Origin: Alphaproteobacteria bacterium
Lineage (GTDB): Bacteria > Pseudomonadota > Alphaproteobacteria > UBA9219
Reading direction: 5' to 3'
Length of the DNA: 64,000 bases
Assembly: GCA_034002905.1 (NCBI GenBank)
Contig: JAVEZQ010000002.1
Coordinates: forward strand, 31,348 to 95,347
A program made the position numbers and the translations under genes. Position 1 is the stretch's first letter; each line of letters starts with the position of its first letter. The notes under the pieces are model-generated. The model made no database searches. It was not told where the DNA came from and saw nothing but the letters and a program-made list of their open reading frames with translations. Shown here in pieces: positions 3,044-29,536 of this stretch.

Positions 3044-4027
3044 ATGATCCTCATCACTGGAGGGGCTGGCTTCATCGGCTCTTATTTGGCGGCGAAACTC
3101 GAAGAAAGAGGCGAGCGAGTCATTATCTGCGATTGGCTTGGAACCGACGACAAATGGCGCAACATTTCCAAGCGCGACCTTGAACACATCATCGCGCCAG
3201 AGCAAATGATGAGCTATCTGGATGAACAAGCCGGAAATATCAAAGTCATTTATCATATGGGCGCGATCTCCGCGACGACCGAACGAGATGCAGACGCCAT
3301 TGCCGAAAACAACTTTCGCCTCAGCCGCAAGCTCTGGGAATGGTGCAAGGATAACAAGACGCGCCTCATCTATGCCTCATCAGCCGCCACCTATGGCGAC
3401 GGCTCAGCAGGCTTTATCGATAACGAGTCTATTGAAGGACTTGCCAAATACACCCCCCTGAATGCCTATGGGTGGAGCAAGCATCTCTTTGACCGCTGGA
3501 TTGCGCGGCAAAAGGATCGTGGCGTTGCGGGGCCGCATCAATGCGTGGGCCTCAAATTCTTTAACGTCTATGGGCCAAATGAATATCACAAGGGAGGCAT
3601 GCGCTCTGTCGCACACCAGATTTACCCCGTCGCTGTTCGCAAGGAAATCTTCCGCCTCTTTAAATCACATCATCCCGATTACGAAGATGGAGGCCAGCTT
3701 CGTGACTTCGTCTGGGTCGGTGATTGCGCCGATGTCATGCTTTGGCTATTGGACAATCCCAAAGTCAATGGCCTGTTCAATATGGGAACGGGACAGGCGC
3801 GCAGCTTTGCAGATCTTGGCCGCGCTGTTTATGATGCCGTCGGCACACGCCCCATGATTCAGTATCGCGATATGCCTGAGGAATTACGCGGCAAGTACCA
3901 GTATTTCACCCAAGCGAATATGAGCAAGCTCCGCGCTGCCGGTTACAGCAAGCCCTTCTCCTCATTGGAAGACGGCATCAAGGCCTATGTTCAGGACTTC
4001 CTCGCCAAAGACGATCCCTATATCTAA
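3044..4027 (+). CDS. hldD: ADP-L-glycero-D-manno-heptose-6-epimerase HldD (RfaD)
   Basis: Carries ILITGGAGFIGS (NAD Rossmann), YASSAATYGDG, YGWSKHLFDRW, FFNVYGPNEYHKG and GKYQYFTQANMSKLRAAGY, all close to E. coli HldD. The ORF track opens at 2978, but the ATG at 3044 (MILITGGAGF) matches the canonical N-terminus. Confidence 0.85.
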   Translation: MILITGGAGFIGSYLAAKLEERGERVIICDWLGTDDKWRNISKRDLEHIIAPEQMMSYLDEQAGNIKVIYHMGAISATTERDADAIAENNFRLSRKLWEWCKDNKTRLIYASSAATYGDGSAGFIDNESIEGLAKYTPLNAYGWSKHLFDRWIARQKDRGVAGPHQCVGLKFFNVYGPNEYHKGGMRSVAHQIYPVAVRKEIFRLFKSHHPDYEDGGQLRDFVWVGDCADVMLWLLDNPKVNGLFNMGTGQARSFADLGRAVYDAVGTRPMIQYRDMPEELRGKYQYFTQANMSKLRAAGYSKPFSSLEDGIKAYVQDFLAKDDPYI

Positions 4028-4043: not shown

Positions 4044-5501
4044 ATGCTTCAGCATCTCCACAGTAAAATCGAAGAACTTTCGGGCCACCGCATTTTGTGT
4101 ATCGGCGATATCATGCTCGACCGCTTTGTCTATGGTCACGTTGAGCGCGTTTCGCCCGAAGCGCCGATCCCTGTCTTGCGCGTGCAGCGCGAGGAAACAA
4201 CGCTCGGCGGCGGCGGCAACGTTGTGCGAAACATCGTTACGCTCGGTGGCCATGTCGATGTGATCGGCGTTATCGGTCAAGATCAGACAGGCTATCATGT
4301 CACCGAGAAATTTTCGGCCATGGAGGGCGTTGTCCCTTATCTTTTGACAGACAACACACGCCCGACGACAGTCAAAACACGCTATGTCGCGGATGGACAA
4401 CAGCTTCTGCGTGCTGACCGCGAGATTAGTGCCCCGATGTCCTCCAGCCTTGAGGAACAGACTCTGTTGCGCGTACGCGGCGCCATTGACTCCTGCGAGA
4501 TTGTTGTCCTGTCAGACTATGCCAAAGGCGTTTTGACAAACAAAGTCATCTCAGAAATCATCCGCCTTGCTAAATCCAAGAACAAGCCTGTGATCATTGA
4601 CCCTAAGGGACGCGACTTCAGCCGTTATCGCGGGGCCTATATGCTCACGCCCAACCGCAAGGAACTATCCGAAGCGACGGGTCATTTAATCAAAACCATT
4701 CAAGAAGCCGAAAGTGCCGCACGTTATTTGATCGAGGCCTACGAACTCAACGGCATTCTCGCAAAGCTCAGCGGCGATGGCGTCTGTCTCGTGATGAAAG
4801 ATTTCCCCGCACAACATTTTAAAGCCAATGCCCGCGAAGTCTATGATGTCTCGGGCGCAGGCGATACCGTCGTCGCGACGATGGCGCTTTGCATGGCGGG
4901 AGGCCTGACGCTTGCCGATAGCGCAGCATTGAGTAATGTGGCTGGTTCCGTTGTTGTTGGCAAGATCGGCACAGCCACCGTCACGCAAGAAGAACTGGCC
5001 CGCGAACTTCTCTATGATCAATCACGTGCAAGCGATGAAAAAATCGTGCCCTTGCCCGAAGCCGCGGAAACAGCCGAACGCTGGCGCAAGCAAGGGCTCA
5101 AGGTCGGCTTTACGAATGGTGTCTTTGATCTTTTGCATCCGGGGCACCTCTCATTGATCCGGCAATCACGCGCCGCCTGTGACCGATTGATTATTGGCCT
5201 TAACAGCGACAGCTCCGTTAAACGCCTGAAGGGCGAGAACCGCCCTATTCAAAGCGAAGAAGCACGTGCTGCTGTTCTGGCCTCGCTTGCCGATGTGGAT
5301 GATGTCGTAATTTTTACCGAGGACACGCCGCTTGAACTCATCAAAGCCATCCGTCCGAATGTCTTGATCAAGGGGGCCGATTATACTGTAGATACCGTCG
5401 TCGGTTCGGACCTTGTGCAGGGCTGGGGCGGCGAAGTGGTACTTGCCAATCTTGTCGAGGGGCAAAGCACGACCAACACGATCAAGAAAATGCAGGCCTG
5501 A
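4044..5501 (+). CDS. hldE: bifunctional D-beta-D-heptose 7-phosphate kinase / heptose 1-phosphate adenylyltransferase HldE (RfaE)
   Basis: N-terminal PfkB-type sugar kinase (ILCIGDIMLDRF...GGGGNV...DVSGAGDT) and C-terminal cytidylyltransferase (GFTNGVFDLLHPGHLSLI...IKGADYT). The ORF track opens at 3987, overlapping hldD. The in-frame ATG at 4044 (MLQHLHSK...) gives a 16-nt gap instead. Confidence 0.85.
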   Translation: MLQHLHSKIEELSGHRILCIGDIMLDRFVYGHVERVSPEAPIPVLRVQREETTLGGGGNVVRNIVTLGGHVDVIGVIGQDQTGYHVTEKFSAMEGVVPYLLTDNTRPTTVKTRYVADGQQLLRADREISAPMSSSLEEQTLLRVRGAIDSCEIVVLSDYAKGVLTNKVISEIIRLAKSKNKPVIIDPKGRDFSRYRGAYMLTPNRKELSEATGHLIKTIQEAESAARYLIEAYELNGILAKLSGDGVCLVMKDFPAQHFKANAREVYDVSGAGDTVVATMALCMAGGLTLADSAALSNVAGSVVVGKIGTATVTQEELARELLYDQSRASDEKIVPLPEAAETAERWRKQGLKVGFTNGVFDLLHPGHLSLIRQSRAACDRLIIGLNSDSSVKRLKGENRPIQSEEARAAVLASLADVDDVVIFTEDTPLELIKAIRPNVLIKGADYTVDTVVGSDLVQGWGGEVVLANLVEGQSTTNTIKKMQA

Positions 5502-5503
5502 AT

Positions 5504-6292
5504 TTAAGCCTTTGCACGAACATAGCGGCGCAAACCTTTATTGAAAATAAATATTGCCAGCCATGCGTAGAAGATCGTTGCCAGCACGATTTCGCTGAAC
5601 GTGACCCAGTCAAAATGGCGCAACAGCTCGATGGGCAGGTAGGAGATAAACCCAGCCGGTATCAGTGTAAAGACCACAGCCTTCACGCCCCACGGCTGAC
5701 CATGCAGCACATTACAGGAAAAGATAATCAGCATCTCGAACAGTTGCCCTGAAAAGCGCGGATTCCCTTTGAGCCAAAAAGACAGCGAAAAGAGAAGGCA
5801 CATCGTCGACATAAACAAAATGGTCGACAACACCGTTAGCAATAGAAACAAGGGAACCATCGAAAACGTGAAGACAGGAATACCCAGCACACCTTGTATC
5901 AACAAATAGAGTGTTGGCGCGTAAAACACATCCCCCAACGATGCTGGCGACGAAGAACTTAACATGATCGCCGGGAGCGGATGGCGTGGCTTGGTAATAT
6001 AAAAATCGATAGCGCCGGAACTCACCTTATAGGGGATCGTGCGCAGCCCGTCGAAAAAGAAAAGTGACAAACCGCAGACCGATGCGACCATGCCAAACAT
6101 ACGCGTGACATCGACAAGGTCCCAACCTCTGATCGAGCCGACATGATTGAAGAAAATCACCCAAAGCACGAAAAACATCGTGTTCTGCAGGCACATGGCC
6201 AGTGACATCACGTAAAGGCGCTTTTTGTCGATGGCATATGTCCGCACATTCGCGACAAAAAGAGCGGCCAGAGTCTTAAGCGTTGACATCAT
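5504..6292 (-). CDS. ABC-2 family transporter permease (second permease of a three-gene exporter)
   Basis: About 260 aa, polytopic and hydrophobic, with no nucleotide-binding motifs. Its ATG at 6292 overlaps the upstream permease stop as ATGA. The longer ORF track start at 6370 would overlap the upstream gene by 80 nt. Its stop lies 2 nt from the convergent hldE stop. Confidence 0.6.
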   Translation of the reverse strand: MMSTLKTLAALFVANVRTYAIDKKRLYVMSLAMCLQNTMFFVLWVIFFNHVGSIRGWDLVDVTRMFGMVASVCGLSLFFFDGLRTIPYKVSSGAIDFYITKPRHPLPAIMLSSSSPASLGDVFYAPTLYLLIQGVLGIPVFTFSMVPLFLLLTVLSTILFMSTMCLLFSLSFWLKGNPRFSGQLFEMLIIFSCNVLHGQPWGVKAVVFTLIPAGFISYLPIELLRHFDWVTFSEIVLATIFYAWLAIFIFNKGLRRYVRAKA

Positions 6293-7095
6293 GCGGCCCC
6301 CTCGCCCTGTATCCGGCGCAAAACGATCCGCTCGAACTTCATCAGGGCATAAAGAATCAACACGGCCCACACAACCTGATGGGCAAAGGCTGCCCCCAAC
6401 TCAAGGGCGGAGCTACCCAACACCCACTTGCCGCAAACAGCCAAGATGGCAGGAAACGGCGTAAACCAACTGATCGCGCCCAGCCAATCAGGATAAAAAA
6501 CAATTGGCCAAATCATTGCACCAAGAAGGAAGATTCCCTTATGCACGACCCAATAGGCTGGCTCGGATTGAACCACCCACAGACAGGATGTCCCCACGGC
6601 ATAATACATCACAAGCGCCATAAAGAGACTAAGGGGCGCACAGGCGATGATCCCTAAGAGATCAAGAAGAGATGGCTCAAACGCTTCCGCGAAGTAAGTG
6701 GCGGTCAGGATGTAAAACGGAAACAAAACACAAAACCTGACGATCGCTTCGCCATACCAGAACGCGATGCGCAATAAGGCCGGTGAAAACGGACGTATAA
6801 TATCCAAATGCACCTGCTCCGTATTAATCTCGTTTTGTATATCCTTGAATCCCCAGCTTGGCGCTGCGAACAGAATAAACTCTGTTGTTGCGATGTACCA
6901 GATCATCTGGCTTTGTGTCAGGCCAAGGGGCGCAATGTCAGCGGGCGGGATCATGCGCATAACGCCGGCATAAAGCATAATAATCACGCCATAGACCATC
7001 AACGTACCAAGCAGCACGAGCTTTTCCGACCATCCATCGCGTAGGCCCATAATCATGGCCGTCATCAGAACAGATAGGTTGTGTCGTGTATTCAT
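6289..7095 (-). CDS. ABC-2 family transporter permease (first permease)
   Basis: About 268 aa with six or more predicted TM segments. The start ATG at 7095 overlaps the ATPase stop as ATGA. The ORF track start at 7104 is 9 nt further up. Confidence 0.6.
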   Translation of the reverse strand: MNTRHNLSVLMTAMIMGLRDGWSEKLVLLGTLMVYGVIIMLYAGVMRMIPPADIAPLGLTQSQMIWYIATTEFILFAAPSWGFKDIQNEINTEQVHLDIIRPFSPALLRIAFWYGEAIVRFCVLFPFYILTATYFAEAFEPSLLDLLGIIACAPLSLFMALVMYYAVGTSCLWVVQSEPAYWVVHKGIFLLGAMIWPIVFYPDWLGAISWFTPFPAILAVCGKWVLGSSALELGAAFAHQVVWAVLILYALMKFERIVLRRIQGEGAA

Positions 7096-8090
7096 AGATA
7101 ACACACCCTCTGCTCGTAGAGCATTTTGATAATCTCATCGAGCGGCAAGCCTTCAATCCCGATATCATGCAGCTTGAAACGGTTCAGGCAATCTGCCACA
7201 ACAACTTCAATCGGCACCTGTGTGACATCGACCTTGAGTACCAACATATGATCCCCTTGCTGCTCGACAACAACATGGGGATGGTCATAATCCGGTTCTT
7301 TTTCTTCCGTCGCCAATCGCAGGATTTTCGATTGGGCATAACGGCGCTGAAGCTCCATCAGGCTGGTGTCGATGAGTTTCTGCCCATGATCGATCAGGAT
7401 CACACGCTGACAGATTTTCTCGATATCTTCCGTATCATGGCTTGTTAAAAGAATTGTAGTATCAAACTGATCCGCCAGTTTATTCAAGTGATCTCTTAAA
7501 AGGGACTTGGCCGTGACATCAAGGCCAATCGTCGGCTCGTCCAAAAAGAGAACCTGCGGCTTGTGCAAGAGCGCAGCGGCAATATCGCATCGCATTCTCT
7601 GGCCAAGAGACAGGTTCTTGGCATACTGCCCCAGAAACTCTGACAAACTGAACAACTCGATCAAGCGGCTCAGTTGCCTGCGATAGGCTTGTTCATCCAG
7701 ATCATATATCCGCGCAAGCAGATCAAAGCTGTCCTGCACCGGCAGGTTCATCCACAAATGAGATTTCTGGCCAAAGACGAGTCCGATATGGCGCGCAAGT
7801 TCACGTGTCTGATCCCATGGGACGAGGCCGCACACGCGCGCGGTGCCCTCGCAAGGCATCAACAGACCGGAAAGCATCTTGAGCGTTGTGGATTTACCGG
7901 CGCCATTTGGCCCGATAAAGGCGACCTTCTCGCCTTGATCAATCGAAAAAGACAGCTGCGCAACCGCGTCCAGCTCTTTATAAATTTTCTTGGAAAACCA
8001 GCCCCGCTTTGCGTCGTCATTGACGCGAACCTTGAAACGACGGGTCAGCTTTTCGACCTCAACAGTACCGCTAATCATCTTTGTCCCCAA
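7092..8090 (-). CDS. ABC transporter ATP-binding protein with ~90-aa C-terminal extension
   Basis: Walker [13 protein letters not shown] signature LSLGQRMR, Walker B VLFLDEPT, and H-loop TSHD. It is the first gene of the ATPase–permease–permease operon on the minus strand. Confidence 0.8.
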   Translation of the reverse strand: MGTKMISGTVEVEKLTRRFKVRVNDDAKRGWFSKKIYKELDAVAQLSFSIDQGEKVAFIGPNGAGKSTTLKMLSGLLMPCEGTARVCGLVPWDQTRELARHIGLVFGQKSHLWMNLPVQDSFDLLARIYDLDEQAYRRQLSRLIELFSLSEFLGQYAKNLSLGQRMRCDIAAALLHKPQVLFLDEPTIGLDVTAKSLLRDHLNKLADQFDTTILLTSHDTEDIEKICQRVILIDHGQKLIDTSLMELQRRYAQSKILRLATEEKEPDYDHPHVVVEQQGDHMLVLKVDVTQVPIEVVVADCLNRFKLHDIGIEGLPLDEIIKMLYEQRVCYL

Positions 8091-8206: not shown

Positions 8207-9859
8207 ATGACCTATGCAATTGACTACCTCCATACTGACGCAGCGAACCGGCATGGGATCAATGTTGCGATACAGGAGTTCATGAAAGCATGGCTTCGTC
8301 ATAGTAGTCAGAATACAGCTCTGGCCCATGTCACAGACCAAGCCAGCCATGATGGTTTTCTGGCCTTGGCCAAAAAGTTTGGCAAGAAACCGCAAGATGC
8401 CTATCAAACGATCCATCCCTATCATCAGCGGGAAAACCTGGCAAAACTGGGCTGCCTCTTCTTGCCTGACCCGGATATCAACAAGTCGGCATGGTGGCGC
8501 GCTCAGATTAAAGGCTCCCATACCCTGTGCGGCCTTGTTCATAGTCTGAGCGGCGATCAAGTTGCGCGGGTTCTCAGCGACATGCTGCTCGCCCCGCTTG
8601 GGGCAAACGATGCTTTGATCTGTCCCTCCCTCGCTATTCGCGATGCGGTGCATCAGCATTGGAGCCTTTATAGCGAGTATCTAAGCGCACGCTTTAAAAC
8701 TGATTTCACCCCAAAGGTTCAAACACCCGTCATCCCGCTGGGCATTGATAGCGCCGCCTTTCAAGAACGCGTAACGCCGGATAAACGGGCCGCGCAACGA
8801 CAAACTTTGGGCATCGAGGACGACGAAGTTGTTATCCTGTTTGTTGGGCGATTGAACTTTGCGACCAAGGCCCATCCCCTCCCCCTCCTCCTCGCCGTCG
8901 AAAAAGCCGCCAAGCAAACGGATAAGAAAGTTCGGCTTGTCCTTTACGGCTATTTTTCACCCCGCGAGGAGATGTCTGAACGCTTTCATGCACTGGCCAA
9001 GGATTTTGTTACAAGTTTCCGTTGCGACATTATCGAAAATACCGACAAGCGCTTTCCCGACGGACTCTGGGCCTGTGGCGATATCTTCACTTCTCTGGTT
9101 GACAACATTCAGGAAAGTTTTGGCCTGACACCTATCGAGGCGCAGGCTTGCGGCCTGCCCGTTGTTGTTACGGATTGGGACGGCTATCGCGATGGCGTCA
9201 TTCAAGGGGAAACGGGATTTCTTGTCGAAACCTATGCCCCGCCCGGACAAGCGGGACAGGATTTAGCCGGTCGTTATCTGTTCGATCAGAATTATGGCTC
9301 TTACCTTGCAACAACAAGTCAATCTACGCCTGTCGATATCGACAGCGCCGCGAAAGCTTTTGCGACCTTGATCCTTGATTCAAATATGCGCCAAAAGATG
9401 AGCCAGAGGGCCAAGGCACATGCCTCTACGACTTATGACTGGTCAGTAATCATAAGGCAATATGAAGCGTTATGGGCCGAGCTTGCGGCACACAAAGCAA
9501 CGAACCTGTATCCGGCCATTCCAGAAAACTGGCAGGCCGTTACACCTTGCTATCCGAATCCGCTGACTGTTTTTCGCTCCTTTCCGAGCCGCGAAATTAT
9601 GGCGTCTGACAGCCTTTCGCTTGCCATCCCCCCAGAACAACTCTCCACTGTCATGCGACATGATATGAATTGTTTTGCGACAGATTTGCTCCTGCCGCTG
9701 TCCTTGTGCCTCTCCCTGATTGAAACAATCGGAACAAATGCGCCTCTGCCCGTCTCTGCGCTTCTAGCCATAGCACCGAACGAAGAAAAAAGCCGGATGT
9801 GGCGCACGATCGGCTGGCTCCTCAAACACGGTATCTGCCGTCTTCATAGAGGGGATTAA
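8207..9859 (+). CDS. glycosyltransferase, GT-B fold, family 1/GT4-like, 550 aa with extra N- and C-terminal regions
   Basis: The GT1 C-terminal domain signature ESFGLTPIEAQACGLPVVVTDWDGYRDGVIQGETGFLV is present (conserved E...E and GLP motifs). It is divergent from the ABC-2 exporter operon. Confidence 0.7.
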   Translation: MTYAIDYLHTDAANRHGINVAIQEFMKAWLRHSSQNTALAHVTDQASHDGFLALAKKFGKKPQDAYQTIHPYHQRENLAKLGCLFLPDPDINKSAWWRAQIKGSHTLCGLVHSLSGDQVARVLSDMLLAPLGANDALICPSLAIRDAVHQHWSLYSEYLSARFKTDFTPKVQTPVIPLGIDSAAFQERVTPDKRAAQRQTLGIEDDEVVILFVGRLNFATKAHPLPLLLAVEKAAKQTDKKVRLVLYGYFSPREEMSERFHALAKDFVTSFRCDIIENTDKRFPDGLWACGDIFTSLVDNIQESFGLTPIEAQACGLPVVVTDWDGYRDGVIQGETGFLVETYAPPGQAGQDLAGRYLFDQNYGSYLATTSQSTPVDIDSAAKAFATLILDSNMRQKMSQRAKAHASTTYDWSVIIRQYEALWAELAAHKATNLYPAIPENWQAVTPCYPNPLTVFRSFPSREIMASDSLSLAIPPEQLSTVMRHDMNCFATDLLLPLSLCLSLIETIGTNAPLPVSALLAIAPNEEKSRMWRTIGWLLKHGICRLHRGD

Positions 9860-9861
9860 AA

Positions 9862-10248
9862 ATGGGAGACTATGATATTTTTAGCCTTGGGCCCGTACGC
9901 ATTGTGACAGGCGTTGTCTTCGGTCTCGTTTTTGGCAGCTTTATCACAATGCTGAGCTATCGACTCCCGCGCCGCCTATCAATTATCAAGCCCAGTTCAC
10001 AATGTCCGCTTTGCCACACCCGTTTAAGGCCGCTCGACTTGATCCCCGTACTGTCGTGGGTGTTGACTAAAGGTAAATGCCGACATTGCAAAGCGCCCAT
10101 TAGCCCGCGCTATCCGCTGATCGAGCTATTTACCGCAGCCGCAACGGCCATCCTTTTTTATGTGCTAGGACTCAGCCCAACACTACTGGTGGCGCTATTC
10201 ACGGAAATTGTAATCATCACCGCGATTGTCATGAAAATCGAGCGCTAA
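9862..10248 (+). CDS. type IV prepilin peptidase N-terminal domain only (truncated PilD/TadV-like; no A24 catalytic domain)
   Basis: 128 aa. TM1 is followed by QCPLCHTRLRPLDLIPVLSWVLTKGKCRHCKAPISPRYPLIEL, which aligns residue by residue with the PilD cytoplasmic tetracysteine domain (CPRCGH...IPL.SYL...GKC..C...I..RYPL.EL). The ORF stops exactly where the peptidase domain (D...LPD) should begin. Its start is 3 nt after the GT stop. It may be a gene remnant. Confidence 0.5.
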   Translation: MGDYDIFSLGPVRIVTGVVFGLVFGSFITMLSYRLPRRLSIIKPSSQCPLCHTRLRPLDLIPVLSWVLTKGKCRHCKAPISPRYPLIELFTAAATAILFYVLGLSPTLLVALFTEIVIITAIVMKIER

Positions 10249-10281: not shown

Positions 10282-13200
10282 TTAATTTATCTTGATATCA
10301 ACGCGATCCATATCGCCGCTGGGGACATTAGCACCCATGGGACGGACATCAACACGGCTGGTCGCCACGCCCTTCATCGCTAGATAATCACGAACAGACA
10401 GAGCACGGTTCAACGAAATGCGGCGCGCCTGACGCGGAGAAATATCCCCGCCGGTGTCGGAATAAGCGATGAGCGTAATCCGTGCCTTGGGATTAGCCTT
10501 CAAGATCGCGGCAAGTTTTGCAAGGCTGTCGAGGGAATCCTCGTCAACTTTCTCAATACCACGATCAAAGCTGACGGTGGCAAGATCCGGCTCCAGCACA
10601 AGCTGTGAACCCGGAACCGTCACACCGCTATCATCAACGATTGGGTCCTCAAGGCCATCCAGCGGCCTCGAAGCGTTTGCTTGTTTGACAGAGGGTGGCT
10701 TGAGCGACGAAACCTCGCCGCCGATGTCTGCCGGAGCATCCGGCACAACCGGAGTCGATAGGATATCTTCGGCTGGCTCGATCTCTTCCTTCGTCACCTT
10801 AGCCTTCGGCTTGCTGTCCTTTTTAGACTTGCTCTGTTTCGCAGCAGCCTCTTTCACAGGCTTGGACGGCTTGACCTGAGGCATGGCCCCGCGTTCAAGC
10901 GGTGGCAAAGACGAAGCGGACAACTGCGGCGTCACCAACGAACCAGACGACGGCTTGGCCGGAGCAAACGGTGCTGTAACAGGCGCTTTCATCACAGGGT
11001 CACGTGGTGCCGCCGAAGGTACAGGCTGTTGCCAAGATGGCGTCGAAGAAGAAGGAAGCGGCTGGGGCATCGAAGTGCTTCCACCGACGGGGGCTACGCA
11101 GCTCACCGCACCACCGCCATTTGTACCGGAACAACTCCACGTCCACGGACCACGACCACTCACCGCACTGGCGATACCCGACGAACAAAGACCGGATTTA
11201 GGCGCCTCTATAGCCATGGCGCCGTGCGCCCCGCCACAGCGGCCCACAACAGGCGGCGGCGGCATAAGTGGGGCCGTACAGCTGACTGTCATACCGCCAT
11301 TTTCGCCGATACAGGCCCAATTCCACGGCCCGTCACCACTAACTTCCGTGGGTGTGCCCGCAGAACAGAACCCAGCGCGCGGACGCGAGACAAAGGCCAC
11401 GCCATTGGACGAACCGCATACACCGTTGACGAGCGGCCCCGGAGGCGGTGGCGCCTTGGACACGACTTTAGAGGCCGAGCAGGTGCTTGCGATGCCGCCA
11501 TTCATACCTGAACAGGTCCATGTCCACGGGCCCTCGCCATAGACGGCGCTTGGCATGCCGCTGTCGCACAGATTGGTGGTGGGGCCAGCCGTCAGAACAG
11601 CATTCGCCGAAGAGCCGCAGGTTCCATCCACACGCGTCTGCGCCTGTGAGGTTGCCGAGCAGCTCACACTATTTCCGCCGCCCGAACCAACACAGCTCCA
11701 CAACCATGGGCCCTGTCCACTTACAGTGGTGGCGTTTCCGGCTTGGCAAAGGTCTTCAACTGGCTGCGCCGTCAGGATGGCGCCATTTGCGCGACCGCAG
11801 ATTGCATCCACAAGCTTTTGGGCTTCGCATTTGACCATGACCTTCTTGTCACCGCAGGTCCAGCTCCATGGCCCCTCGCCTTCGACTGCTCCAGCCTCTC
11901 CTGACTTACAAAGGTTATCAAGGGGCTTGGATTTATAGCTGCCTCCAGCCGCAATACCGCATTCGGCCGAGGCCATATTCTGAGGCGCAGAGGACAGCGC
12001 TGCACCATTGCTGCCTTTAGCCGCAGACATATCGCTATCTACCTTGGGCGCACTGCATGAAGCCTTGTCGCCACCAAAGACGCCTTCACACGACCATGTC
12101 CATTTGTCACCTACGAGGATGGCTTTGCCGGGGGTACCCGTATCACAAAGATCATAGATTGGCTCTTCGGCAGAAGGTTCTTTGGTCGCCTTGCCACACG
12201 CACCATCTTTCTTACTTAAAGTCTCGCAAGAAACCTGATGCCCCGCATCGTCAGAGCAACTCCACGTCCAAGGACCGGAGCCCGATACATCGCTTGCTGT
12301 GCCGGTTGCGCAAAGGCCGGCTGATGGTTTTGATAGAACCAGCGTATCCGTCGCCTTGCCGCAAGATACTGTATTGGCAATGGATTCTTTTGTTCCAACC
12401 GAAGCCGTACAGCTTTCGGTCATGCCGCCCCTTTCACCGCCGCAAGTCCAGTTCCATGGCCCTGTTCCCGTGACACGTGAAGGACGACCCGTCTTGCAAA
12501 GCCCGACCGTCGGCGCTTTAAGGTACTGGTTGCCATGAGCAGCACCACATTGTCCGTCAACAAGCGTGAGAGCCTGACAGGCAACACTGGCACCGCCGTT
12601 TTCTCCCTCGCATGTCCAACTCCACGGCCCGCTTCCTGTTACCTTGGTAGACGATCCGACCGCGCACAATCCTTCTTCAGGTGCCGAACGGGCGCCGTTG
12701 ACGCTTGCCTTGCCGCAAACGGCATCGACCTTGCGCATCGCGGAGCAGGTTGCCGCCTCACCGCCATAAAGGCCGGAGCATGTCCAGTTCCACGGGCCCT
12801 CGCCAGATACCGCACTGGCATACCCCGCATTGCAGAGATCGCTCATCGGCATCGTATCAAAACCACGCTTGTCCGCACGTCCACATTCGCCATTAGTTTT
12901 GCGCTGAGCCGTACAGGCAGCCGGAGCCCCACCATTCAATCCGCTGCAAGCCCATGTCCAAGGACCAGCACCGTTCACACGGCTCGGCGCACCCTTTTCA
13001 CACAAATCGGTGACAGGCGGGGTTTCTGTTCCCTGACCTGCGGCCGCACCGCACTTACCATCTTCAATCTGGATTTCAGTTTGCCCCGACGCTTTGGCGG
13101 AATCGATATTAGCTTTTTGCTTTTCATCTTCCTGTGTGACTGGCGCGGCACAGCTAATGCTCATACCACCATTGATCCCTTCACAGGTCCAACGCCATGG

Positions 13201-14574
13201 CCCTGTACCAGTCAGGGCCGAAGCCCGGCCCTTCGTACACAAATCAGCCGAAGGGGCTACAGAAACGGCAAGGCCATTTGCCACACCACACGAGGCATCG
13301 ACAGGGTTCGTGCTTGCTTCGATTGACACGGGCGCAACTTCAGCAACGGCTGGAACGGATGATGCTGCTTTTACCGCAGCGTGATCTTCAAGAGCTGCCG
13401 TTGGCGGAGCCGTTAAATCCTTCATCGCCGTATCCGATGCAGCTTTCGAAACGGGCGCATAGATATTCGCACAACTATTATTCAGCCAAATATCACGCTT
13501 AGCTCCAGAGGGGCATTCAATGCGCGTTTCCCCGACGACCTGTCCGCGATAGTCAACGGGATAGCCGATGTCCTTGCAATCCTTTGTCCATTTGGTGACG
13601 CTTGGCACACATTCGGACGACTGGGAATCCAGAACGGGGGACGCCGCCTCTGGGGTGCTTTCGCGTGAAGGGGAGGATGCAGCACCAGCTGGTGCAGACT
13701 CAGCGGTTTTGGCTTCGGCTTCATCTTCAACCGAACTGCCAAAAACACTCTCGAAAGGCTTGGCCAAACGATCAAAGAAACCAGTTTCTTCCTCTTCCGT
13801 CTTTTTGGGCTGTCCGTCCAGATCAGCTTCATACAGAGGAACAGGCGGAACCGTCAGGTCCGTAGCCTTGTCCACACCCGTATACCCAGTTCCCTTGGCC
13901 TTTGCCATTTCAGGAGGAAAAACGATATCATCTTTATGAACTTTTACCGACGTTGCTCCGGCTTTGTCTGGAGAAACCCACGCTTTGGGTTCTTGGCCGC
14001 TGACATAGTTGCCGTCATCCTCTGCCGTCGCCGTCACAGACAAAGACTGGACGGAATCGTCGGCTTTGCCAACGGAGGCAGCCGTTCCTTCGGCGTCATC
14101 TTTGGTTACCATCATGCCACTGGCGGGAACATCGGTATTTTGTCCGGCCCGACGCAGGATGCTCTTCATCCCCTGCATGAGCATATCAGCCGTAGAGCTT
14201 GTATTTTTAGCATCTATTGCGGGCGGGTTTGTCGTTTCCTCTACCAGCTCACCCTTTCCACCAAGAAGCGGAGCCTTAAGCCCGCCGACCGACTTTTGAG
14301 GCAAAGGATGTTGGCTGGTGCTTTGCACCTTTTTCTTTTCGTTGTCTTGGTGACGCGGCAGCTTCAAATCGCCTGCCTTGAGCGGACGGTTCCAGATTAC
14401 ACCTTGTGGAAAGGTGCGCTCATCGGGCACAGACTCCGTTTGCGGAACGCCATAAACCTCGACAGACGAAGTCGAAGCCGTTGCAGAGAAGCTCGGAGTC
14501 GGATGACAAGCGAGCAAAACCGCAACCAGTCCGCAGAAAGAAAAGATAAAGTGAGAACGTTTAAACACAGACAT
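10282..14574 (-). CDS. giant (1430 aa) putative lipoprotein: ~430-aa N-terminal region, 12 tandem ~55-aa four-Cys repeats, Pro/Lys-rich linker, C-terminal OmpA-like peptidoglycan-binding domain
   Basis: One uninterrupted 4293-nt ORF. The N-terminus MSVFKRSHFIFSFCGLVAVLLAC has a signal peptide and an LLAC lipobox. Repeat consensus is CG.A.G......P...LC..G..S.V.G.GPW.W.C.G.NGG...SC.A. The C-terminus ITLIAYSDTGGDISPRQARRISLNRALSVRDYLAMKGVATSRVDVRPMGANVP...DRVDIKI is OmpA_C-like. Confidence 0.75.
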   Translation of the reverse strand: MSVFKRSHFIFSFCGLVAVLLACHPTPSFSATASTSSVEVYGVPQTESVPDERTFPQGVIWNRPLKAGDLKLPRHQDNEKKKVQSTSQHPLPQKSVGGLKAPLLGGKGELVEETTNPPAIDAKNTSSTADMLMQGMKSILRRAGQNTDVPASGMMVTKDDAEGTAASVGKADDSVQSLSVTATAEDDGNYVSGQEPKAWVSPDKAGATSVKVHKDDIVFPPEMAKAKGTGYTGVDKATDLTVPPVPLYEADLDGQPKKTEEEETGFFDRLAKPFESVFGSSVEDEAEAKTAESAPAGAASSPSRESTPEAASPVLDSQSSECVPSVTKWTKDCKDIGYPVDYRGQVVGETRIECPSGAKRDIWLNNSCANIYAPVSKAASDTAMKDLTAPPTAALEDHAAVKAASSVPAVAEVAPVSIEASTNPVDASCGVANGLAVSVAPSADLCTKGRASALTGTGPWRWTCEGINGGMSISCAAPVTQEDEKQKANIDSAKASGQTEIQIEDGKCGAAAGQGTETPPVTDLCEKGAPSRVNGAGPWTWACSGLNGGAPAACTAQRKTNGECGRADKRGFDTMPMSDLCNAGYASAVSGEGPWNWTCSGLYGGEAATCSAMRKVDAVCGKASVNGARSAPEEGLCAVGSSTKVTGSGPWSWTCEGENGGASVACQALTLVDGQCGAAHGNQYLKAPTVGLCKTGRPSRVTGTGPWNWTCGGERGGMTESCTASVGTKESIANTVSCGKATDTLVLSKPSAGLCATGTASDVSGSGPWTWSCSDDAGHQVSCETLSKKDGACGKATKEPSAEEPIYDLCDTGTPGKAILVGDKWTWSCEGVFGGDKASCSAPKVDSDMSAAKGSNGAALSSAPQNMASAECGIAAGGSYKSKPLDNLCKSGEAGAVEGEGPWSWTCGDKKVMVKCEAQKLVDAICGRANGAILTAQPVEDLCQAGNATTVSGQGPWLWSCVGSGGGNSVSCSATSQAQTRVDGTCGSSANAVLTAGPTTNLCDSGMPSAVYGEGPWTWTCSGMNGGIASTCSASKVVSKAPPPPGPLVNGVCGSSNGVAFVSRPRAGFCSAGTPTEVSGDGPWNWACIGENGGMTVSCTAPLMPPPPVVGRCGGAHGAMAIEAPKSGLCSSGIASAVSGRGPWTWSCSGTNGGGAVSCVAPVGGSTSMPQPLPSSSTPSWQQPVPSAAPRDPVMKAPVTAPFAPAKPSSGSLVTPQLSASSLPPLERGAMPQVKPSKPVKEAAAKQSKSKKDSKPKAKVTKEEIEPAEDILSTPVVPDAPADIGGEVSSLKPPSVKQANASRPLDGLEDPIVDDSGVTVPGSQLVLEPDLATVSFDRGIEKVDEDSLDSLAKLAAILKANPKARITLIAYSDTGGDISPRQARRISLNRALSVRDYLAMKGVATSRVDVRPMGANVPSGDMDRVDIKIN
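11090..13291 (-). repeat. intragenic array of 12 diverged tandem coding repeats (~150–240 nt each) encoding the four-Cys GPW.W.C modules
   Basis: Coordinates were derived by counting residues of the 12 repeat units (734 aa) and the 268-aa C-terminal tail. The many long antisense ORFs on the plus strand in this interval come from the GC-rich repetitive sequence. Confidence 0.65.
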
Positions 14575-16316: not shown

Positions 16317-16868
16317 TCAATCCGGATCCCAGATTTCCTGCAAGGACGGATACGCCTGGATCAGGAAATCAGTGACCTTATCGATGGGGCGATACACGCC
16401 AATCCACGGGATAAGCTCTTCCGTAATAATCAGTTTTTCAACATCTTCATCCGTTATGTGGATACGATCCCAATACAGATAATAGAAGTTCTCTTCCCCT
16501 TTGACCAAGACGGCCATAATCGTCTTAGGGAATGCGGGATCATCAAGCTGAACAAGCAAATAATTCTGATCGTTATGCGTCTTTTTCATCCACGCAAAGC
16601 CGATGTCGTGATGAAAGAGCTCCTCACTATCGTTATGCATAACGATATATTCCGGCTCTCCCGGATTCTTTCGATAGGGATTATCCTGTATCTTCGTCCG
16701 ACACTTAAAGTTAAGCGTCGAAATCTGGCCGACATAAATGCCATCGATCAGTTCGAACACACCAATACGACGCATAAAGCGGCAGCGCGAGGCTTCCTCG
16801 TGCGATATCTTCTTTAAAGCTCGATTTTCTTTAACGTTGAGAAAATCAGCAGCAGCGATCAATCCCAT
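16317..16868 (-). CDS. hypothetical protein (~183 aa), AT-richer than its neighbours, no recognisable domain
   Basis: The ORF track gives 16317..16949. The ATG at 16868 (MGLIAAADFLNV...) avoids the hydrophobic read-through N-terminus. No motif recognised. Confidence 0.4.
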   Translation of the reverse strand: MGLIAAADFLNVKENRALKKISHEEASRCRFMRRIGVFELIDGIYVGQISTLNFKCRTKIQDNPYRKNPGEPEYIVMHNDSEELFHHDIGFAWMKKTHNDQNYLLVQLDDPAFPKTIMAVLVKGEENFYYLYWDRIHITDEDVEKLIITEELIPWIGVYRPIDKVTDFLIQAYPSLQEIWDPD

Positions 16869-17372
16869 AACACACCCCCAGTTAAGAGGGGAGATTAACT
16901 CCCAATTCCTTGCCAAAGACAGCAAGAGGTGCCATAGGCCGAGCGCCAAAAAAAGTCATAGGTTCTTGTCGGAGCTGAAGCACTTCGTACCCAGTCACGA
17001 TTCACACGTGTGAGTCATCCGTACCGGCAACCGGCCCTATTTTCTTTGCCACCAACCAAAGCCCCTTTCCAAAACACACACGGAAAGGTACCCTTGCTGT
17101 TATACCACATACTCCTGCTCCCCCATGACAGGGAAACCGAAGAGGCAAAGCGTCGTTACATAAACCAGTGGGGAACGTACTAGGTGGTAAGCCACTACAT
17201 CCTTGGGCCAGTGGTACGTGCGCTTTCGAGGGCAACATGACCTATAGCCCCCCAAGATGCAATAACTATTTTACAATTCTGAATATTTTCATATCCTATT
17301 GTGACACACCTGCACCTTGCGGCGAAAAACGCGCGGACCTGCGGAGGATTAACCTTAACACAAAGGAAACCC

Positions 17373-28294: not shown

Positions 28295-29536
<1,242 letters not shown>

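Follow-up and report, generated by a model that had tools for sequence, protein, structure and literature searches.

Prepilin peptidases of the PilD/XcpA type (P. aeruginosa; MEROPS A24A; IPR010627 plus IPR000045) are proteins of approximately 290 aa that possess eight helices and combine an N-terminal module with a Peptidase_A24 domain. The zinc finger of the P. aeruginosa enzyme is formed by C72, C75, C97 and C100 (PMC3584216), and N-methylation, which uses SAM, requires zinc, whereas cleavage does not (PMC3584216; PMC10191384). Residues assigned to methylation by mutagenesis are these four cysteines, together with Gly95 and Lys96, which lie next to the third cysteine (PMC3584216). Pilus assembly in P. 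aeruginosa does not depend on methylation of the pilin N-terminus (cited in PMC3584216), and the role of this modification is regarded as a mystery after more than 40 years (PMC10191384). A review from 2023 presents prepilin peptidases as either bimodular or peptidase-only, and describes no methylase-only proteins (PMC10191384). That the two modules are separable in nature is apparent from the TadV/CpaA/FppA enzymes of type IVc/Tad pili, with TadV lacking the methylation domain (PMC10191384). For stand-alone A24_N proteins, our literature search returned nothing relevant.

The gene considered here lies within the window, i.e. the whole 64-kb stretch of DNA that was analysed, and its 128-aa product is a mirror image of the TadV/CpaA/FppA arrangement: whilst those enzymes keep the peptidase and are devoid of the methylase module, the window protein presents the reverse. 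By its sequence it belongs to the A24_N family (PF06750 / IPR010627, 'methylase domain'). Its N-terminal module is homologous throughout to that of PilD/GspO, with which it shares the CxxC-x21-CxxC spacing, a glycine and a basic residue before the third cysteine, and a topology of TM1, cytoplasmic loop and TM2; its third helix corresponds to the PilD helix that carries the first catalytic aspartate (Asp1). In contrast to PilD, the window protein has 128 residues, three helices and no Peptidase_A24 domain, displays a lysine in the Asp1 column, has no GxGD motif, and lacks linkage to genes for pili or T2SS, being coupled instead to a GT4 glycosyltransferase in an rfaD-hldE operon. None of the hallmarks of a prepilin peptidase is found, be it the domain, the two aspartates, the eight helices or, across the 64-kb window, linkage to filament genes. 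Public annotation nevertheless lists the protein as 'prepilin peptidase', a label that is misleading.

The short A24_N gene and its product

The reading frame is a genuine ORF that extends from ATG to TAA and yields a product of 128 aa (Table 1). Residues 19–100 match A24_N_bact (PF06750) with an E-value of 2.4e-32 and 111.3 bits (Pfam cut-off 23), covering positions 1–82 of the 84 in the model. Pfam detects no Peptidase_A24 (PF01478 / IPR000045) in the protein, and NCBIfam holds no model for it. The gene follows that of the glycosyltransferase after a spacer of 2 nt, rather than the 3 nt given by the first-pass annotation, as the glycosyltransferase TAA occupies positions 9857-9859; the 33 nt said to separate the A24_N stop from the 3′ end of the convergent giant gene, i.e. 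from its stop codon, are correct when measured on the sequence. A Shine–Dalgarno-like motif within the 3′ end of the glycosyltransferase gene is consistent with translational coupling, and a scan for promoter-like sites between the two genes saw none (weak evidence). The surroundings are those of a core chromosome, with riboflavin synthesis genes, NrdR, SHMT, a CcrM-like methylase, SpoT and PPDK all contained within the 64-kb window.

Table 1. Features of the A24_N locus and of the surrounding operon region (positions in the window)
Feature	Position	Strand	Details
rfaD-like epimerase	3044-4027	+	Pfam, called genes, synteny
hldE-like bifunctional heptose kinase/adenylyltransferase	4044-5501	+	Pfam, called genes, synteny
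ABC-2 transporter, inverted	5504-8078	-	Between hldE and GT4
GT4 glycosyltransferase, 550 aa	8207-9859	+	Pfam Glycos_transf_1, E 7.9e-22; stop 2 nt before A24_N start
Shine–Dalgarno-like GAGGGG	9849-9854	+	7 nt 5′ of A24_N ATG, within GT4 gene 3′ end; read from sequence
A24_N-only membrane protein gene	9862-10248	+	ATG 9862, TAA 10246-10248, 128 aa; Pfam PF06750
TM helix 1	9889-9963	+	Residues 10-34; AlphaFold2 helix, hydropathy scan; region of invariant G21, G25-S26-F27, Y33-R34, P36
Cytoplasmic C4 zinc-finger loop	9964-10107	+	Residues 35-82; C48, C51, C73, C76; G71-K72 before third Cys
TM helix 2	10108-10167	+	Residues 83-102; begins with invariant R83-Y84...E88; AlphaFold2, column statistics
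TM helix 3	10177-10242	+	Residues 106-127; homologous to first Peptidase_A24 helix; AlphaFold2, alignment
Lys125	10234-10236	+	In catalytic Asp1 column (alignment with full-length relatives)
Glu127	10240-10242	+	Conserved; corresponds to E/D of the 'D-x-E/D-H' motif
1430-aa OmpA-type giant gene	10282-14574	-	Convergent, 3′ of A24_N gene

An AlphaFold2 model of the protein, generated from an alignment of 23 sequences (pLDDT 94.1, pTM 0.84), consists of three long helices and a zinc-ribbon loop. Hydropathy agrees on this number of helices, as opposed to the eight found in prepilin peptidases. The first-pass annotation had aligned the protein with PilD through TM1, the zinc-binding loop and TM2, and had placed its end directly thereafter, exactly at the boundary of the missing catalytic domain. 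The PilD-like arrangement of TM1, loop and TM2 is borne out, the quoted loop being present with its four cysteines in CxxC-x21-CxxC spacing, and the catalytic part is indeed absent; the chain does not, however, stop behind TM2, but retains the first helix of the peptidase domain and terminates 3 residues past the Asp1 column, with the GxGD motif missing. All six residues needed for methylation in PilD are retained, namely the four cysteines, G71 (equivalent to G95) and K72 (equivalent to K96).

Alignment of the short family reveals 18 invariant columns, which include all four cysteines. The conserved set comprises C48, C51, C73, C76, G71, a basic residue at position 72, P62 and S65, with further conservation at G21, G25, S26, F27, R34, P36, S46, R83, Y84 and E88. 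Conservation is 100 % for the cysteines and G71, position 72 carries K or R in 86 % of members, and E127 is kept in 84 %. The residues of the A24_N signature are at or near 100 % in active, degenerate and short groups alike. The Asp1 column contains aspartate in 98 % of active full-length enzymes (n=67) and in 75 % of degenerate full-size forms (n=28), and asparagine, arginine or lysine in the short family (n=53). Because this column is occupied by Lys125 and the second aspartate, that of GxGD, is gone together with five of the helices, the window protein cannot be an aspartic protease. With regard to known structures, searching the PDB by sequence yielded only unrelated eukaryotic zinc fingers (CTCF) as chance matches, and Foldseek comparison of the model with the PDB returned nothing below E=2; no solved structure with an A24_N domain was found by either route.

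Intramembrane proteases that are catalytically dead, yet retained for binding roles, are known from other families, e.g. the iRhoms. Like these and the Derlins (both rhomboids), the window protein derives from a polytopic protease scaffold that lost catalysis and is conserved under selection. The folds are unrelated, however, and the window protein has additionally lost most of its scaffold whilst keeping an accessory enzymatic domain.

Separate A24_N modules and a candidate role in methylation

Type IV pilus loci from other lineages contain A24_N modules that are likewise encoded on their own. At one of these (L128/L129), a 213-aa peptidase-only protein (IDIEHHRLPD, GMGMGDVKL) is followed by an A24_N-only protein of 128 aa (P0023), then by an N_methyl pilin gene (KREEGFTLIEM), and then by pilT, pilB and pilC. 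Its gene content marks this locus as a naturally split prepilin peptidase, in which the modules stand in the opposite order to that of the fused form; no description of such a split enzyme was found in the literature searched. Over 97 residues, P0023 shares 53 % identity with the window protein; it likewise has three helices and a zinc finger and ends soon after TM3. The two nevertheless differ in lineage and in subgroup motif (LNVVIYR in place of TMLSYR), and P0023 resides amongst type IV pilus genes, with an active peptidase-only gene next to it, whilst the window protein has no such neighbours. A second locus (L126/L127) harbours an A24_N-only protein of 146 aa (P0037) amongst pilC, pilB and pilT-like genes. 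Since A24_N-only proteins occur in pilus loci, in one case beside a peptidase-only gene, the module may well function as its own polypeptide, and these arrangements suggest that it can work separately from the protease.

The reading that we favour is that of a peptidase-dead, stand-alone PilD methylase module, in which the zinc-dependent function is kept in trans and uncoupled from cleavage; taken as a whole, we consider its chances to be evenly balanced. The window protein would be the descendant of a PilD-type prepilin peptidase, reduced to TM1, the C4 zinc finger, TM2 and the first peptidase helix. [quoted passage not shown] Candidate substrates may be type IV pilin-like proteins that are cleaved by a separate peptidase (of the TadV/CpaA type, without an A24_N module) or, alternatively, the product of the co-transcribed GT4/ADP-heptose pathway. 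That methylase-type activity in particular is retained in trans by the short protein is a tentative proposition, with a likelihood of one half or slightly less.

A number of observations sit uneasily with a methylase. The retained A24_N residues could be purely structural, and the sole recurrent partner of the gene is a glycosyltransferase. Furthermore, the dispensability of pilin methylation in P. aeruginosa (PMC3584216) accords badly with strong conservation. More than 40 short or degenerate loci of the lineage all lack linkage to pilus, T2SS or Tad genes, and the 64-kb window and the flanks of 33 loci are free of such genes. Class III signal peptides and Flp motifs were likewise sought there by regex in all frames, with nothing credible returned.

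Potential substrates of the pilin type do appear to exist in the lineage. M. aeruginosavorus ARL-13 encodes eight proteins of the prepilin type, together with an Flp pilin that is highly expressed, a TadV-like peptidase of 552 nt, and an 825-nt leader peptidase gene situated beside pilT (PMC3189940). The 825-nt leader peptidase probably carries its own methylase domain, and because of this an additional pilin methylase is not obviously needed.

A conserved methylase-only protein, considered alongside natural split enzymes, indicates that the module probably suffices on its own. With no more than three helices and a single zinc finger, it also provides a minimal system in which to locate the sites for SAM and substrate.

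The glycosyltransferase neighbour and the origin of the short form

Synteny comparisons place the short gene in a recurrent neighbourhood consisting of fabG-fabD, divergent rfaD-hldE, an optional inverted ABC-2 transporter, an optional GT4 and the short gene itself. The rfaD and hldE genes are, as read from this gene order, the conserved upstream part of an ancestral rfaD-hldE-GT4-A24_N operon. The GT4 protein carries a conserved yet unannotated C-terminal extension of approximately 200 aa, evident from alignment of its orthologues, and displays no clear TM segment (top 19-residue hydropathy 1.67). Amongst 29 short-form loci with enough upstream sequence, GT4 is directly 5′ in 11, hldE in 4 and a divergent ABC transporter in 6; neighbours at the remaining loci are unrelated, and include an aldo-keto reductase, MdoG, CcmE, GT2, a transposase and GlnA.

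In the reverse comparison, the GT4 orthologue alignment was scanned against metagenome contigs. A short A24_N gene follows GT4 in 19 of 21 close loci (at least 44 % identity, with downstream room). The stop codon of GT4 and the start codon of the A24_N-containing gene behind it, which is short or full-size (see below for L039-L041), overlap in L001, L005, L039 and L040 and abut in L041. The first-pass annotation had offered, as one of two possibilities, a stand-alone zinc-ribbon module recruited to the glycosyltransferase operon. This is the better description, given the 19/21 pairing and the full-size forms that occupy the same slot (below), although the association is not obligate, since 18 of the 29 short-form loci have no adjacent GT4.

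The coupling raises the possibility of a role outside pilus biogenesis, and the main rival to a methylase in trans is correspondingly a non-enzymatic membrane partner of GT4. [quoted passage not shown] The start/stop coupling, including the 2 nt spacer of the window, fits such a partnership, as does the want of a clear TM segment in GT4 and the preservation of the pair in 11 short-form species and in all four of the degenerate full-size forms examined (including that at L043). Loss of catalysis, moreover, coincides with residence in the GT4 operon, with an active relative that has both domains (P0124) adjoining a secretin instead. Against this, not only do most short-form loci have no GT4 beside them, but approximately 45 more distant GT4 relatives (33-42 % identity) have neither an A24_N gene nor any recurrent alternative small membrane protein 3′ of them. 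Fusions of GT4 and A24_N, of the Rosetta-stone kind, are absent from the best 120 GT4 homologues, an A24_N domain in glycosylation is without precedent, and an anchoring role would not require the full set of methylation residues. Overall, we view a purely non-enzymatic partnership as rather unlikely.

A related proposal, somewhat doubtful in our estimation, is that the A24_N module was co-opted in Micavibrio-like Alphaproteobacteria to an envelope pathway that is independent of pili, as a membrane subunit of the GT4/ADP-heptose system. It might then transfer a methyl group to the amino group of a glycoconjugate bound to the membrane, or bring GT4 to a lipid or protein acceptor. Were this so, A24_N would be a free-standing and reusable membrane enzyme or adaptor, as opposed to an appendage of a protease.

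Less probable still is a regulatory or decoy subunit, which would bind to the N-termini of prepilins or to an A24 enzyme of the peptidase-only kind (TadV/CpaA), and modulate pilin processing without catalysis. Retention of TM3 and of the conserved Glu127 by the former active site would suit such a function, split systems do show the module paired with a separate peptidase polypeptide, and dead intramembrane proteases with binding roles, such as the iRhoms, provide an analogy. The suggestion is nonetheless conjectural; it finds no type IV filament gene linkage in the lineage to support it, and leaves the coupling to GT4 unexplained.

Clues to the origin of the window protein come from four full-size PilD-like proteins of 243-264 aa (P0068, P0075, P0116 and P0110), all of which are without GxGD and which, judged by synteny, are its nearest relatives. 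Pfam finds A24_N only in three, and a weak Peptidase_A24 match in P0110. Each of the four sits in the slot of the short gene, start/stop-coupled to an orthologous GT4 of 551-554 aa (L039-L043 context). The rfaD-hldE pair is located 5′ in the case of P0075 (L040) and P0116 (L041), the contig of P0068 (L039) ends upstream of GT4, and at L043 the GT4 pair lies in a different chromosomal neighbourhood without hldE. As to whether related genomes hold an intact peptidase in this position, full-size PilD-like proteins are thus to be found there, but their catalytic GxGD is lost. They resemble the window protein in operon slot and in the subgroup motif of the N-terminal part, which reads TxLSYRLP in P0068 and P0075, and differ from it in keeping the downstream helices and, usually, an aspartate in the Asp1 column, both of which the window protein has lost.

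Because these degenerate forms share the slot of the short gene, a sequence of events can be proposed in which a PilD paralogue would have entered the GT4 operon, lost catalysis whilst there, and then been truncated after the third helix, with GT4 later lost or moved in many lineages. This four-step history is the most economical account. In a neighbour-joining tree, the short family forms one clade beside the degenerate forms, with bootstrap values of 11/100 for monophyly of the short family and 26/100 for the short family together with the four degenerate forms; in light of such weak support, the order of events rests mainly on synteny.

Conservation of the short form

A search over 5.8 billion proteins recovered approximately 30 homologues of 123-147 aa, with 46-69 % identity to the window protein and more than 90 % of the query covered. 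Scanning one genome per species identified 28 loci, all of them in Alphaproteobacteria MAGs, several labelled Micavibrio; 24 of these are complete short ORFs, 2 run off the end of their contig and 2 encode full-length proteins. Another 19 short genes lie 3′ of GT4 in metagenome contigs. The short orthologues of these Micavibrio-like Alphaproteobacteria are 123-150 aa in length, and in every case the frame stops 0-10 residues past a conserved x-E-[RK]. More than 50 orthologues, from at least 28 species-level genomes, have this end-point in common, and many of these genomes are without the giant gene. Nei–Gojobori estimates of dN/dS range from 0.08 to 0.42 (24 pairs with unsaturated dS), and the short gene is under purifying selection. 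The same end-point throughout the family, the invariant columns and the low dN/dS together indicate that the gene is old and vertically inherited. In all likelihood, the short protein is a conserved, functional and non-proteolytic stand-alone module.

The other possibility raised by the first-pass annotation, i.e. a scar left when a deletion or insertion took away the 3′ half of a pilD/tadV-like gene, survives as ancient history, given the PilD-like descent and the loss of the peptidase half, but not as a local or recent event. The neighbouring giant gene, similarly, is not the cause of the truncation, as many orthologue genomes that lack it share the end-point. A decaying pseudogene or local scar, and with it a non-functional ORF, would be in keeping with the missing peptidase half and with a stop only 33 nt from that of the convergent giant gene. 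This reading is effectively excluded by the shared end-point of the orthologues, the constraint seen in dN/dS and in the 18 invariant columns with all four cysteines, the good Shine–Dalgarno sequence and the compact, confidently modelled fold.

A sequencing or assembly frameshift splitting an ordinary pilD, with the peptidase domain encoded downstream in another frame, has nothing but the short length of the protein to recommend it, and is ruled out: an HMM of the peptidase domain, built from 45 active relatives, finds no such domain when the 64-kb window and the flanks of the short-form loci are searched in all six frames, the DNA 3′ of the ORF belongs to the 1430-aa gene on the opposite strand, and an identical 128-aa ORF with the same neighbours is present in the NCBI MAG and in four independent SRA (Logan) assemblies. 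Amongst the 33 loci searched alongside the window, this HMM matches only L031 and L032, both of which are genuinely full length. The 100 % identical NCBI protein (P0001) is encoded on a contig of 312 kb. As short genes that do not specify a protease are annotated as 'prepilin peptidase', the capacity of these genomes for pilin processing is overcounted.

Separate and variant modules of the prepilin peptidase

Outside the lineage of the window protein, a naturally split prepilin peptidase occurs in two type IV pilus loci (L128 and L129), where a 213-aa peptidase-only protein harbouring both catalytic motifs is followed by a 128-aa protein containing only A24_N (the N-terminal zinc-finger module of PilD), an N_methyl pilin, and then pilT, pilB and pilC. 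Compared with fused PilD, the modules of this split pair are in reverse order, and a simple frameshift is therefore rejected as the origin of the split. In two further pilus loci (L126 and L127), a 146-aa A24_N-only protein is likewise found amongst pil genes, with no Peptidase_A24 gene within 6 kb of it.

The PilD-like proteins of L039, L040, L041 and L043 are of full size, lack the GxGD motif and are apparent pseudo-peptidases. Their genes display start/stop coupling to orthologues (551–554 aa) of GT4, the glycosyltransferase encoded directly upstream of the window A24_N-only gene. Further degenerate full-size forms (e.g. P0090, P0093 and P0099) are found in unrelated GC-rich lineages. Two A24_N matches per protein are present in P0070 (383 aa), P0084 (494 aa), P0078 (345 aa) and P0156 (354 aa), with P0070 and P0084 looking like tandem duplications of the whole prepilin peptidase within a single polypeptide.

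Neighbouring genes in the window

GT4 belongs to a large family (2216 matches at E ≤ 1e-20), and its C-terminal extension, which has no match in Pfam or NCBIfam, contains many invariant positions, e.g. W412, Y419-E420, P450-N451-P452, H485 and W537. The ABC-2 transporter, one permease of which matches ABC2_membrane_6, separates hldE from GT4 as an insertion that runs in the opposite orientation, and occupies that site in only some relatives.

The 1430-aa OmpA-type protein has a signal-peptide/lipobox-like N-terminus. It also contains a four-cysteine module of ~47 aa, repeated 11 times in tandem (CG...LC..G....V.G.GPW.W.C.G..GG....C), to which no Pfam family corresponds; the protein's orthologues in L005, L008, L010 and L025 display 44–49% identity. 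CcrM-like methylases with a RAMA domain are typical of Alphaproteobacteria, and the example encoded here fits the placement of the window within this class.

Positions of the features discussed, in the window or in the loci compared
Feature	Position	Strand	Remark
ABC-2 type transporter	window 5504-8090	-	three genes (two permeases, ATPase)
GT4 C-terminal extension	residues ~350-550; gene, window 8207-9859	+	~200 residues, strongly conserved
OmpA-type protein	window 10282-14574	-	1430 aa; C-terminal OmpA domain
DUF736 protein	window 16317-16949	-	
CcrM-like N6/N4 DNA methylase, RAMA domain	window 28361-29536	+	
Split prepilin peptidase	L128:3268-4980; L129:875-2587		Logan ERR8482638 / ERR8482627
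A24_N-only protein, 146 aa	L126:6001-6441; L127:6001-6441		between pilC/pilB and pilT-like ATPase
PilD-like proteins without GxGD	L039:2263-3018; L040:5433-6227; L041:8001-8732; L043:8001-8771		243-264 aa
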